A DNA stretch of 64,000 nt. Origin: Candidatus Parcubacteria bacterium. Lineage in GTDB: Bacteria; Patescibacteriota; Minisyncoccia; Phycocordibacterales; CAIZLB01. Location: positions 25,347 to 89,346 of the forward strand of contig JAYUPL010000014.1 of the NCBI GenBank assembly GCA_043760135.1. Reading direction: 5' to 3'. The notes under the pieces were generated by a model that searched no databases, was not told the origin of the DNA, and saw only the letters and a program-made list of their open reading frames with translations. The first letter of the stretch is position 1, and each line of letters begins with the position of its first letter. Positions 2,102 through 50,363 of this stretch are shown piece by piece. Made by a program: the position numbers and the translations under genes.

Positions 2102-2143
2102 TCTTTCGATAAAACCTTTGGTATTTTTTAAATAAAATAAATT

Positions 2144-2178
2144 AAAACTATGTGTTAATTCACATAGTTTTAATTTTT
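2144..2178 (+). terminator. hairpin aaaactatgtg-ttaatt-cacatagtttt + aattttt
   Basis: 11-bp perfect stem immediately after the RRM gene, followed by an A/T run. Confidence 0.5.
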
Positions 2179-2240
2179 AACTCCTCGGTTCGGAAATAAG
2201 TATTTGTATACTTATTTCTCTCACTCTACGTCGTTAATAA
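2177..2240 (+). repeat. conserved structured element, copy 1: TTAACTCCTCGGTTCGGAAA-[hairpin gaaataagtat/ttgt/atacttatttc]-TCTCTCACTCTACGTCGTTAATAA
   Basis: Flanks are identical to the reverse complement of 9658..9723. The central hairpin differs in sequence but keeps the same stem-loop geometry (compensatory changes). A hairpin plus T6 follows (2241..2275). Confidence 0.55.
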
Positions 2241-2280
2241 ACAAAAGACGCGACAAAATCGTGTTTTTTGTTTATTATAT

Positions 2281-8783: not shown

Positions 8784-8840
8784 TTGTTGTATAAATACAT
8801 AATCTGAAAATGTATTTCAGACTGTACTACCCACAAAACC

Positions 8841-9272
8841 ATGAAAACCACACATTTGATTATTTTGTTCTTCGCGTTTTTTCTCTCTGCTTCGGCGCAG
8901 ACTGGTCCGAGTTATGGACTTCCGAAACTCAAAGAGGTTCAAGGTGCTCGGACGAGTGTTGACGGTCGTTGGATTAACTATGACGGTAGTCTGTACCATA
9001 TAATGGACACTTCCTTCAATAAGGATTCGGATGAACCAATTCTTTTTGTAAATAGTGATCCATACATTGTTGGGGCTCGGATCACTCTCAATGATGAGTT
9101 CGTGTACTACGGTCGAAACAATTACCAAAAGTTTCGGACCGCTTGGAAACCGATGGTGATACGTGGAGGTGAGATAAAACGTCCAACTGGAGCAGTCTTA
9201 GGATTTGCAGTTTTTATTGCTATTTTTATAACCTGCTTCGCAAGATCTACTGCCAAAAGGACAGCATGGTAG
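8841..9272 (+). CDS. hypothetical secreted protein with C-terminal TM anchor
   Basis: Signal peptide MKTTHLIILFFAFFLSASAQ, C-terminal hydrophobic segment, GC above background. Confidence 0.4.
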   Translation: MKTTHLIILFFAFFLSASAQTGPSYGLPKLKEVQGARTSVDGRWINYDGSLYHIMDTSFNKDSDEPILFVNSDPYIVGARITLNDEFVYYGRNNYQKFRTAWKPMVIRGGEIKRPTGAVLGFAVFIAIFITCFARSTAKRTAW

Positions 9273-9379
9273 GTGAATCTGTTTTTGTTTTCAAATCAAC
9301 CCTCGGGACTCTAAAAGTTCCAGGGTTTTCTTTTTATTTGATAAATTGCTGTTGGTGAGGTATACATAAAGTATCCGAA

Positions 9380-9601
9380 ATGGTTTCGGATCTTGAACCT
9401 TCGACCTATATGAGAACCATAAGCACCGTTTTCCTCGTTTTACTTACTGTCAAATTATTTTTCTCCTTCAGTGGTGTGCCGTTGTTTATTGTTATGATCG
9501 TTTCTGTATTTGCTGTTCCTTTCTTTATTATGGAGATACTCTACATCTCTCAAGATAGGGACAGTGACCTCGGATATATCAATCGATCTTCTAACTGGTA
9601 A
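9380..9601 (+). CDS. hypothetical small membrane protein
   Basis: Two predicted TM helices. No recognisable family. Confidence 0.3.
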   Translation: MVSDLEPSTYMRTISTVFLVLLTVKLFFSFSGVPLFIVMIVSVFAVPFFIMEILYISQDRDSDLGYINRSSNW

Positions 9602-9624
9602 CCTTGTGCAAACCCAAATCAAAA

Positions 9625-9657
9625 ATCCCCGGACTTTTACAGGACTGGGGATTCTCT
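9625..9657 (-). terminator. rho-independent terminator (minus-strand reading: ccccagtcctgtaaaagtccgggga + TTTTT)
   Basis: GC-rich stem followed by a T-run on the minus strand. It closes the structured region downstream of the DoxX-like gene. Confidence 0.55.
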
Positions 9658-9723
9658 TTATTAACGACGTAGAGTGAGAGAAACAAAAGTGATGACACTT
9701 TTGTTTCCGAACCGAGGAGTTAA
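9658..9723 (-). repeat. conserved structured element, copy 2 (inverted orientation): same flanks as copy 1, central hairpin gaaacaaaagtg/tcat/cacttttgtttc
   Basis: Reverse complement matches 2177..2240 in both flanks (about 20 + 24 nt identical). The hairpin sequence differs but is fully compensatory. Confidence 0.55.
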
Positions 9724-9819
9724 CGGTAAATACCTCGGAGCTTTGCTCCGGCACATGGACAAGCAAAGCTTGTTCGATGTGATACCTCGATGCTCTGCAT
9801 CGGGGAGGTATTCATTTAA

Positions 9820-10230
9820 TTAAAACTTTGGTAAATCAGCTGTTGAGTGTGCGACGATAATTTTATCTTTCGGGTGGTTTGTCACCAATGCCCATTTTCC
9901 ACCACCAACTGCAGCAAGGATTGCAGAACCGATAAGTAGTAGTATTGCATCTGTAGATTGACCATTTGTGTAATACACAGCACCAATCATTATGATGAGT
10001 GCACCAGCTGCGGCTAACTTGGTCCATATTCCAAAAATAAGACCAAGACCTGTTGCGAGCTCTCCAAGTGCCACTGCCCAGGCAAAGCCTGCAGATAATC
10101 CTGTTAACCCACCCAAGATATTTACCGCATGATTCATATCAGTAAGTTTGTTGTAACCTGCATATGCAAGCATTCCTCCAGCAACGAGGCGAATAATTAA
10201 TATTAGTATATTTTTTATATTTGTATTCAT
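9820..10230 (-). CDS. DoxX-family membrane protein
   Basis: About 135 aa with 4 TM helices. N-terminal LILIIRLVAGGMLAYAGYNKL resembles DoxX. Confidence 0.5.
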   Translation of the reverse strand: MNTNIKNILILIIRLVAGGMLAYAGYNKLTDMNHAVNILGGLTGLSAGFAWAVALGELATGLGLIFGIWTKLAAAGALIIMIGAVYYTNGQSTDAILLLIGSAILAAVGGGKWALVTNHPKDKIIVAHSTADLPKF

Positions 10231-15933: not shown

Positions 15934-16172
15934 ATAATACCTGCTTTTCTAAGAGTTTGAAAAGCACCATTTTTATTGATAGTTTTGATAGCTCTGGTTG
16001 AAACTGTTACAGAGACTGTTTGGTTTATTTCAGGAACGAAGATTTTTTTCTTTTGTAGGTTTATATATCTTCTTCTTTTTCCGGTAGGGTTAAATTGAGT
16101 AGCACGAGTTCTGTTAGAATACCCGCCTCCGTTTATTGATCCTCTTCCTGTTATTTCGCAAATTTTAGCCAT
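15930..16172 (-). CDS. rpmB: 50S ribosomal protein L28
   Basis: MAKICEITGRG...RRRYINLQKKKIFVPE...VSTRAIKTINKNG matches L28. The track ORF has a spurious N-terminal extension. Confidence 0.85.
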   Translation of the reverse strand: MAKICEITGRGSINGGGYSNRTRATQFNPTGKRRRYINLQKKKIFVPEINQTVSVTVSTRAIKTINKNGAFQTLRKAGII

Positions 16173-16239
16173 GACAAGTATACTATCACAAAGGTTTGAT
16201 TGTGGCAATATATATAGTTTGTATGGTATATTTAATTTT

Positions 16240-16743
16240 ATGCTTAAAATAAAGGACGAAAAGAAAATAAAAATAGCTAAAATTCCAGTACCAGAGACGT
16301 TTGAAGAAAAGGTTTCCAAAAGCATAGGGTCAATTTGGTCACTCTATATTCATACAGCTATATTTGTCCTTTCATTTTTACTTATAATTTTAGGGGTTTC
16401 TACAGAAGAAGTGTTACTAACACTAACAACATTGGTATCTTTGGAAGCAATCTACCTCTCTATTTTCATACAAATGGCGGTAAACAAGAACACCGAATCT
16501 CTTGAAGAAGTTGAGGAAGACCTGGATGAGATCCAAGAAGATATTGATGAGATTCAGGAGGGTGTTGAGAGTATTGAGGAGGACATCGATGAGATCCAAG
16601 AGGATGTTGAAGAGATTGAGGAGGATGTGGATGAGATAGAAGAAGGTGATAATAAAAGAGACAAAGCAGTAAATGACAAGTTCACAAAAATTGATAATCA
16701 ATTAAACTTAATATTAGCTGAATTAAAAAACTTACAAAAATAA
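16240..16743 (+). CDS. membrane protein with C-terminal acidic tandem repeats
   Basis: Two TM helices followed by a repeated E-E-D-[ILV]-D-E-I-Q-E 9-aa unit. Start chosen at the internal ATG to avoid overlap with rpmB. Confidence 0.45.
   Translation: MLKIKDEKKIKIAKIPVPETFEEKVSKSIGSIWSLYIHTAIFVLSFLLIILGVSTEEVLLTLTTLVSLEAIYLSIFIQMAVNKNTESLEEVEEDLDEIQEDIDEIQEGVESIEEDIDEIQEDVEEIEEDVDEIEEGDNKRDKAVNDKFTKIDNQLNLILAELKNLQK
16507..16650 (+). repeat. about 5 tandem 27-bp coding repeats (acidic 9-aa units)
   Basis: Repeating units gaggaagacctggatgagatccaagaa / gatattgatgagattcaggag, and so on. Confidence 0.6.
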
Positions 16744-43973: not shown

Positions 43974-44103
43974 TATATGAAAATTTGGTAGGTGTAAATA
44001 GGGATGATTGGGTCCTTATATTATGACCTTTGTGGTTACAGGACCAGTATATCTTTCGAATCTCACCCGCAAGCCGAACTGTCGGCTTGCTCTCCATCTA
44101 ATG

Positions 44104-44136
44104 AAAAACAGATGTCTTTAAAAGACATCTGTTTTT
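44104..44136. terminator. palindromic hairpin aaaaacagatgtctttt/aaaagacatctgttttt
   Basis: 15-bp perfect palindrome with A/T runs, adjacent to the 3' end of tRNA-Ser. Confidence 0.55.
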
Positions 44137-44141
44137 CCTAG

Positions 44142-44228
44142 CGGAGGAGGTGAGATTCGAACTCACGGGACCCGTTAGAGCCCTCTTGTTTTCAAGACAA
44201 GCGCATTCGACCTCTCTGCCACTCCTCC
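44142..44228 (-). tRNA. tRNA-Ser (anticodon TGA), class II with long variable arm
   Basis: Reverse complement ggaggag-tg-gcagagaggtcgaatgcgc-ttgtc-ttTGAaa-acaag-agggctctaacgggtccc-gtgag-ttcgaat-ctcac-ctcctcc-g closely matches bacterial tRNA-Ser(UGA). Confidence 0.8.
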
Positions 44229-47630: not shown

Positions 47631-47659
47631 GCACTTCTATTTTGCCAAGGCAAAATATG
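47631..47659 (+). repeat. tRNA-trailer hairpin motif gcacttctattttgccaaggcaaaatatg (copy 1)
   Basis: 27 of 29 nt identical to the reverse complement of 50335..50363, which directly follows tRNA-Val. Confidence 0.5.
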
Positions 47660-50333: not shown

Positions 50334-50334
50334 C

Positions 50335-50363
50335 ACATTTTGCCTTGGCAAAATAGAAGTACA
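50335..50363 (-). repeat. tRNA-trailer hairpin motif (copy 2, follows tRNA-Val on the minus strand)
   Basis: Minus-strand reading gtacttctattttgccaaggcaaaatgtg. Confidence 0.5.

Follow-up and report, generated by a model that had tools for sequence, protein, structure and literature searches.

A probable mobile, hairpin-rich repeat between a DoxX gene and its terminator in a Parcubacteria genome, with relatives in several CPR classes

Our analysis points to a mobile repeat as the source of a densely structured stretch downstream of a DoxX-like gene in a Parcubacteria genome. The stretch (positions 9602-9819 of the window, i.e. of the whole 64,000-nt piece of DNA that was analysed) is probably one copy, 160 nt long (9816-9657, minus strand), of a mobile DNA repeat that is non-autonomous, modular and rich in hairpins, together with the pre-existing terminator of the DoxX gene. 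The best reading of its kind is that of a REP/BIME-, BOX/ERIC- or MITE-like repeat, here one without terminal inverted repeats (TIR) or a clear target site duplication (TSD). The family is new to Rfam and to the searched literature but of a known general kind, and it is atypical in that it is modular, lacks TIR and a clear TSD, lies next to terminators and carries boxes that are invariant CPR-wide. CPR (Patescibacteria) genomes are tiny and streamlined and are usually described as poor in mobile DNA. A repeat that occurs at tens of copies per genome, is near-unchanged in several CPR classes and is absent from the searched RNA and repeat catalogues would add a new component to such genomes.

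Read on the minus strand, the DoxX gene (9820-10230, from the ORF list and with a Pfam DoxX match at E = 9e-14) ends with the stop codon TAA at 9820-9822, and after a gap of 4 nt the inserted unit begins (9657-9816, minus; AATGAATACC ... CGTCGTTAATAAA). This 160-nt copy, termed copy 2, is of full length, as are the 13 further copies to which it was aligned and which come from Parcubacteria MAGs and metagenomes. Its 5' part contains three hairpins on the minus strand, namely H1 (9782-9811) with an outer stem ATACCT/AGGTAT and an inner stem CGATGC-AGA-GCATCG, H2 (9752-9781) with 14 bp and a TTT triloop (CACATCGAACAAGC-TTT-GCTTGTCCATGTG), and H3 (9736-9750; CGGAGC-AAA-GCTCCG), which is followed by the repeated GAGGTATT motif. 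A motif of the GAGGTAT type lies 3' of each of the three, and the second GAGGTAT (9729-9735, minus) is an alternative pairing partner for the outer arm of H1. The conserved element then extends from 9723 to 9657 (minus) and consists of a 5' box (TTAACTCCTCGGTTCGG, 9707-9723, with an exact second match at 2177-2193), a hairpin of 12-13 bp whose sequence varies between copies while the pairing is kept (9680-9707), and a 3' box (TCTCACTCTACGTCGTTAATAAA, 9657-9679), which is the most conserved part of the family. In general form this core is 73 nt long, and between its 5' box TTAACTCCTCGGYTCGG and its 3' box CTCRCTCTACGTCGTTAATAAA lies a stem whose sequence is free. Outside the repeat lies the terminator of the DoxX gene (9620-9653, minus), a stem AATCCCC.../...GGGGATT followed by T5. 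With its GC-containing stem-loop, T-run and position behind the gene end it corresponds to the definition of an intrinsic (Rho-independent) terminator.

The preliminary description had regarded the conserved element as a second copy, and this was confirmed. The other one, copy 1, is found at 2142-2241 (plus), where an AT-rich 13-bp hairpin (2142-2173) precedes a core of 73 nt that has its 5' box at 2177-2193, then a hairpin, and its 3' box at 2217-2241. The covariance-model score is 81.5 bits, and the core stem differs in sequence from that at 9680-9707 and is compensated. Copy 1 is located between the gene of an RRM protein and the terminator of that gene (AAACAAAAGACGCGACAAAATCGTGTTTTTTGTTT, 2239-2275, plus). 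A covariance-model search detected no third copy in the 64-kb window. A weak match at 44086-44158 is just the 3' end of a tRNA-Ser gene and a terminator, and positions 9330-9360, considered as a decayed second copy, were rejected after comparison with a relative (L159) identified them as native sequence.

Some further features of the window were recorded beside these copies. The RRM gene upstream of copy 1 (1688-2101) contains an exact 32-nt duplication (1991-2022 / 2063-2094) in its RGG-rich tail. A 305-aa ORF at 503-1420 has no Pfam match, shows internal domain repeats and has a GC content of 0.48-0.52 as compared to ~0.31 around it; it may be foreign or may be under an unusual constraint on composition. 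ORF 16171-16743 carries seven in-register 21-nt tandem units (16490-16673) that encode an acidic, E/D-rich heptad-like repeat. Positions 47633-47659 and 50334-50360 form an inverted repeat of 27 nt (96%) that represents the same terminator-like hairpin, ATTTTGCCAAGGCAAAAT, beside tRNA-Arg and tRNA-Val and could be a second, much smaller family of repeated hairpins.

The unusually dense structure that had been noted at 9602-9819 is non-random. On the minus strand the 218-nt stretch folds with -71.9 kcal/mol as compared to -49.4 +/- 4.2 kcal/mol for 200 dinucleotide shuffles (z = -5.4), none of which was as stable. The plus strand folds equally well (z = -6.3), so that the folding energy alone gives no choice of strand. 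An end-to-end alignment of 14 full-length (~160 nt) homologues showed pairs changed on both sides in H2 (6/14), H3 (5/6) and the core hairpin (3), and paired cells amounted to 93% (95.7% in H2) versus 35-46% in controls with slid partners. H1 is the weakest of the hairpins, with one compensatory pair, several G-U pairs and an outer arm that pairs equally well with the second GAGGTAT. Of the consecutive hairpins in the preliminary description, H1, H2 and H3 are thus supported by covariation, H1 less so, whereas the additional CCGAGG/CCTCGG helix is not: it is compatible with most copies, but shares 3 nt with H3 and has no pair that changed on both sides. For the core, 50 diverse sequences were compared. 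Covariation was seen in 13/13 pairs of the stem, with 135 doubly changed cells versus 36 +/- 7 in shuffles, and both boxes were near-invariant. G-U cells in the core stem (11) do not exceed A-C cells (18), so there is no sign of one RNA strand being the selected folder, and the same comparison on the long form (32 versus 19) likewise gave no strand signal.

These numbers make it barely conceivable that we are dealing with chance structure in an ordinary spacer or with a small protein-coding gene. Palindromic terminators are frequent in AT-rich genomes, and an ATG...TAA frame of 31 codons is present at 9814-9719, but none of 200 shuffles reached the stability of the region, its stems show compensatory changes, and about 150 homologous copies exist. 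The frame itself was rejected as a gene, as indels break it in other copies and no ribosome-binding site precedes it. A 103-aa ORF at 9455-9766 (minus) is an artefact overlapping the repeat.

The homologous copies were collected by one scan of a genome collection and one of metagenomes. Among the GTDB species genomes, the 18-mer CTCACTCTACGTCGTTAA matched 35 loci, with about 27 genuine copies in the Parcubacteria MAG GFS_112 (at least 25) and 7 in GFS_1662, many of these located at contig ends. Single copies were found in three Saccharibacteria, one Komeilibacteria, UBA2135 and another CPR bin, and two of the 35 loci, on a Gemmatimonadota and a Roseomonas contig, were discarded as chance matches to the 18-mer without the rest of the element. 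The metagenome scan with CTCTACGTCGTTAATAAA yielded 110 stretches, and both scans together amount to about 150 distinct copies; a covariance model (R1) gave 112 matches in 99 loci. The sequence CTCTACGTCGTTAA is identical in copies from Parcubacteria, Saccharibacteria and Komeilibacteria, and a box of 18-22 nt is identical across at least three CPR classes. At least nine loci of GFS_112 share an identical 66-nt core with unrelated flanks, and between genomes with ~75% identity in the flanks the repeat itself retains ~93%, both of which indicate recent spread or homogenisation. In public read assemblies, contigs from the same species as the window end within the element, from both sides, and this is how a repeat behaves.

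There was no match to the repeat in viral contigs, phage records or plasmid records. Against Rfam 15 only tRNAs passed the gathering thresholds in the whole window, and the Rfam search that had been proposed as a check returned no relevant RNA family in 9200-10000 at E <= 10, nor in ten other element-bearing loci at E <= 1; IS605-associated Rfam motifs likewise had no match in the window or in these ten loci. A literature search by box sequences and keywords retrieved no description of such a CPR repeat. A tRNA- or tmRNA-like identity was rejected, since ARAGORN finds only the five tRNAs of the window.

Evidence for insertion came from syntenic contigs of relatives, which were reached via PilC-like homologues (71-89% identity) and share ~75% nucleotide identity with the window. 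Copy 2 is absent from the DoxX site in three of them (L158, L159 and L160), where 8-22 nt separate the stop codon from a homologue of the terminator at 9653-9620. Copy 1 is missing from five relatives, in which the RRM-pilC spacer measures 65-82 nt and contains only the conserved terminator AAACAAAAGACGCGACAAAATCGCGTTTTTTGTTT; the corresponding spacer of the window holds ~100 extra bases, i.e. the AT-rich hairpin and the core, immediately upstream of this terminator. No copy of the repeat was detected in 3 x 21 kb of syntenic relatives. The empty orthologous sites identify both window copies as insertions. Since the terminator is present at the empty sites, the terminal GC stem with T5 (9653-9620), which the preliminary description had included in the structured region, belongs to the host and not to the repeated unit. 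Presence and absence are reversed at a tRNA-Val locus, where GFS_112 (L019) carries a copy upstream of the terminator and the window has an empty site. GFS_112 also has a short form at its DoxX site (L020), and the DoxX-site copies of the window and of GFS_112 could be one inherited copy or independent insertions on the same niche. Long and short forms at one orthologous site were seen in L011 and L018.

The interval between PGK and DoxX is itself variable, spanning 8784-9819 in the window, 16473-16800 in L158, 16434-17205 in L159 and 16437-17336 in L160. In the window it encodes a 143-aa secreted or anchored protein and a 73-aa membrane protein, and in the relatives differing sets of small membrane proteins, all without Pfam match.

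Of 70 copies with both neighbouring genes called, 26 lie between convergent genes, 17 between co-directional genes in sense and 22 in antisense orientation, and 5 between divergent genes. Divergent intergenic regions are therefore avoided (5/70), and orientation relative to the flanking genes is unbiased (17 sense versus 22 antisense). About 40% of the copies start 0-30 nt behind a co-oriented stop codon. At seven or more loci the upstream reading frame ends in a stop codon that belongs to the element, TAA (ATAAAGG) or TGA (AATGAATACC), and in antisense placements a TAA or TAG in the complement of the 3' box terminates the convergent ORF. Within 75 nt of their 3' end, 26% of the copies have a terminator-like hairpin on the same strand and 32% have one on the opposite strand; at the 5' end the figure is 5-10%. 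By strict terminator criteria 34 of 151 copies have a terminator at the 3' end versus 57 of 1498 random windows, a ~6-fold enrichment. In each of the three comparisons of filled with empty sites, the repeat's 3' end directly adjoins the A-tract of a terminator that was already there. Left flanks of about 50 copies have only A-richness in common, with no conserved tetra- or pentanucleotide target. Placement at gene ends could also result from purifying selection on random insertions instead of targeting.

Such placement could also be expected of a cis-acting 3'UTR RNA module that is selected by the host, e.g. a stabiliser of mRNA 3' ends, a terminator enhancer or a platform for an RNA-binding protein, which had spread by duplication and was kept as useful in the manner of a domesticated REP-like sequence. 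The short distance to co-oriented stops in about 40% of the copies, a terminator just downstream in about a quarter, covarying stems and boxes invariant across CPR classes all agree with this, and copy 1 lies in the 3' region of a gene for an RRM RNA-binding protein, itself a candidate binder. We nevertheless consider such a module unlikely. Among co-directional genes there is no preference for the sense orientation, G-U is not enriched in the stems relative to A-C, copies with truncations or rearrangements are tolerated, and the same genes lack the repeat in close relatives, so that it is dispensable for both DoxX and the RRM gene.

A family of trans-acting sibling sRNAs was weighed as well, whose targets would be Shine-Dalgarno regions, paired with the exposed CUCCUC in the 5' box and with the CU-rich 3' box, and in which each copy would end at a terminator. 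Multi-copy sRNA families with anti-Shine-Dalgarno motifs exist in Firmicutes (csRNAs, LhrC) and offer a precedent; the CUCCUC motif is predicted to be unpaired or in a loop, and many copies are followed by a terminator. These terminators, however, are host-derived and older than the insertion, the sequences 5' of the copies are unrelated and contain no conserved promoter, and many copies begin inside, or a few nt from, the stop of the upstream ORF. A copy number of at least 25 with many truncated forms and the lack of an Rfam match also argue against sibling sRNAs, which we regard as highly improbable. Near the DoxX-site repeat, a scan for sigma-70-like promoters gave nothing over shuffled expectation. 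The preliminary description's proposal of an sRNA or 3'UTR element holds as far as the position in the DoxX 3'UTR is concerned. It fails with regard to a locus-specific sRNA or a dedicated DoxX regulator, given a multi-copy dispersed repeat that is absent from this site in three syntenic relatives and shows no orientation bias, no G-U signal and no conserved promoter.

Comparison of the copies revealed a modular build. Small hairpin modules in variable number, each ending in GAGGTAT, precede the 73-nt core, and size forms of 160 nt, ~108 nt (H2 and H3 missing) and ~72 nt are set apart by deletions located at short repeats, e.g. GAGGTAT or GCAGAGC. In other CPR lineages the 5' module is a ATAAAGGATCCTCG-hairpin-CGAGGTATT or a degenerate remnant of the 3' box, and the central stem reaches >150 nt through nested palindromes. 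Head-to-tail tandems share junctions of the GTTAAT/ATTAAC type, and one palindromised copy and one inverted 5' box were found. Microhomology deletions, tandem duplication and palindromisation indicate evolution by events at the DNA level. Examples of the nested palindromic modules in the variable stem of the core are L014 5470-5652 (minus), L057 8185-8420 (minus) and L046 3420-3523 (minus), with sequences such as AAGGTCTGGCCTT.../...AAGGCCAGACCTT and CCGAGTCAGACTCGG. Such modules recur in UBA2135-like contigs, which suggests that further small palindromic repeat families exist in CPR genomes. A run of N in one GTDB genome record (L014 4219-4596) lies exactly inside a copy of the repeat. Its interpretation as a large insertion or a mask was rejected in favour of a scaffold gap caused by the repeat, as the same locus in a metagenome contig (L139) holds an ordinary 84-nt core. 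Orphan 5' boxes were likewise rejected as autonomous elements and represent truncations or a scaffold gap.

The ends of the element, AATGAATACC and TTTATTAACG (the reverse complement of the 3' end), are not complementary, and there are therefore no terminal inverted repeats. Only the core is bracketed by an inverted pair of 5-9 bp, TTAAC/GTTAA, which in some lineages is extended to TATATTAAC/GTTAATATA. At two sites where both junctions could be compared to empty sites no clean or consistent duplication was seen. Strings like AATAAA or TTAA occur on both sides of the repeat, with AATGAA on the left and AATAAA on the right being constant within genomes, and for this reason they look like part of the element.

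The bracketing pair also brings to mind the DNA site of a site-specific recombinase, integron attC-like or Xer/dif-like, with the TTAAC...GTTAA inverted ends and the head-to-tail junction GTTAATATTAAC as crossover sites. AAC/GTT core triplets typify the R''/R' boxes of attC sites, whose form is RYYYAAC/GTTRRRY, and TATTAAC/GTTAATA resemble these triplets; a central structure of variable length between conserved boxes and a palindromic junction common to tandem units would fit too. Apart from TTAAC/GTTAA, however, the resemblance fails, since the inner boxes TCCTCGGYTCGG and CTCRCTCTACGTC are not complementary and provide no L''/L' pairing, and the full element has ends (AATGAATACC / GTTAATAAA) that do not form inverted repeats. 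Core housekeeping genes and not cassette arrays surround the copies, and no integrase was present among the 25 Pfam families hit most often by the 149 neighbouring ORFs or in the fully read ORFs. The lone tyrosine recombinase noticed, ~1.3 kb from a copy in L038, resembles an ordinary XerC/D, as judged by eye from its translation. We therefore hold a recombinase site to be a very remote prospect. Readings as attC, Xer/dif, boxA/nut, 16S mimic, TIGR/CRISPR or ribozyme were dropped, as the sequence lacks their defining features.

The neighbourhoods of the copies were also searched for the enzyme of a mobile element. Pfam domains on the 149 neighbouring ORFs belonged to 122 families, the 25 most frequent being housekeeping families without any transposase or recombinase among them. 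ORFs between oppositely oriented copies were again housekeeping genes with no partner enzyme seen, and no pair of 5' box and 3' box enclosed an ORF, as an autonomous version would, in the examined loci. The most frequent neighbour families were DoxX (4 of 149 ORFs) and VanY (3); the frequency of DoxX may stem from orthologous loci in related metagenome genomes and not from a real association. In L048, positions 1-672 comprise the 3' part of a 16S rRNA gene with group II intron-like interruptions, ~600 nt upstream of a copy.

We propose that the repeat settles in the gap between the end of a gene and its terminator and that it would be mobilised in trans by an enzyme recognising the invariant boxes and the hairpin. 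With no TIR and no clear TSD, with subterminal hairpins and with an association with hairpin targets, the most plausible mobiliser would be a HUH/Y1-like enzyme; our best guess is one that recognises single strands or hairpins (IS200/IS605- or REP-RAYT-like). Horizontal spread of the repeat among CPR bacteria appears probable, and such spread of an active element would explain the conservation of the boxes throughout CPR classes. Identity of the boxes across classes exceeds the conservation of most transposon ends, though, and could also be explained if a conserved host factor recognises the boxes or if they act at the RNA level, two possibilities to which we together give roughly one chance in four. 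At the DoxX site the repeat, judged by its position between the stop codon and the gene's own terminator, is very probably co-transcribed with DoxX up to the host terminator. Read-through would add four stable hairpins to the 3'UTR, and these may incidentally stabilise the DoxX mRNA or affect termination. The structured 3'UTR of DoxX is thus real, but it is a by-product of insertion.

A more far-reaching version is possible but rather doubtful. The 73-nt core might be the recognition module of an undescribed CPR-wide system, either for hairpin-guided mobilisation at the flank of terminator A-tracts or as an RNA or DNA motif bound by a conserved CPR-specific protein; in the protein-bound variant it may be, for example, a regulatory RNA with the anti-Shine-Dalgarno CUCCUC or a module for the protection of 3' ends. 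If this were true, repeats in minimal genomes would be more than selfish DNA. The mobile repeat that we favour has implications of its own. It explains contig breaks in CPR assemblies, serves as a marker for recent gene flow among CPR lineages and marks the gap between stop codon and terminator as a niche for insertion. The two invariant boxes and the stem provide a handle for finding the recognising enzyme or binding protein. For annotation, the case is a warning that structured 3'UTR or sRNA candidates in CPR genomes may be insertions of repeats.

Among known systems, the REP/BIME/REPIN repeats of Proteobacteria, which are mobilised by RAYT, a Y1 transposase of the IS200/IS605 type, share many traits with the CPR repeat. 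They are short, multi-copy, extragenic palindromic repeats found mostly downstream of genes in convergent or co-directional gaps, form mosaics of palindromic units and linker motifs, have no TIR or TSD and are transcribed within 3'UTRs. GTAG and CGTC tags have been described for REP superfamilies, a REP being an imperfect palindrome of 20-40 nt with an adjacent tag (PMC3733652). The 3' box of the CPR repeat contains CTACGTCG, i.e. complements of the GTAG and CGTC tags (PMC3733652), with GTAG and GACG on the complementary side, but this tag-like sequence lies 9 nt 3' of the 12-13-bp core stem and is not adjacent to it. There is no sequence similarity to REPs, which the CPR unit exceeds in size (73-160 nt), and its single-stranded boxes are long and invariant. 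Unlike REPINs, CPR copies are single or head-to-tail and not inverted pairs. They number tens and not hundreds per genome, and their boxes are conserved across classes, in contrast to the species-specific REPs. The flanks examined yielded no RAYT gene.

Modular intergenic repeats are also known as BOX in Streptococcus pneumoniae (boxA-boxB(n)-boxC) and as ERIC/IRU in enterobacteria, the latter with internal insertion and deletion variants. The CPR repeat resembles them in its stable hairpins, its probably transcribed intergenic location, the lack of a known dedicated transposase and its fixed ends enclosing variable internal hairpin modules (160-, ~108- and ~72-nt forms). However, the sequences are unrelated and belong to another phylum, and the CPR repeat differs further in that its 3' end abuts terminator hairpins and that it occurs in several CPR classes. 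With MITEs and similar elements (Correia/NEMIS of Neisseria, RUP, Rickettsia palindromic elements) the repeat shares its small size, non-autonomy, multiple copies and filled and empty sites between relatives, and, as in these elements, stop codons can be supplied to neighbouring ORFs and the copies are probably co-transcribed with flanking genes. It is multi-copy, dispersed and polymorphic for presence or absence between relatives, as expected of a MITE. Classical MITEs, in contrast, have TIR and a fixed target duplication (e.g. TA), whereas the ends of the CPR repeat are not inverted repeats and no consistent duplication was seen.

The last group, the IS200/IS605-derived PATEs, differs from the CPR repeat in that the latter has no conserved tetra- or pentanucleotide 5' of its left end, no TnpA or TnpB seen in the flanks examined and no match to IS605-associated Rfam motifs. 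PATEs nevertheless have no TIR or TSD, the CPR repeat has no TIR and no clear TSD, and both show a strand-defined architecture with subterminal hairpins near both ends; in the CPR repeat H1 begins 5 nt from the 5' end, and 22 nt lie between the core hairpin and the 3' end. As in PATEs, mobilisation as single-stranded DNA is plausible for the CPR repeat.
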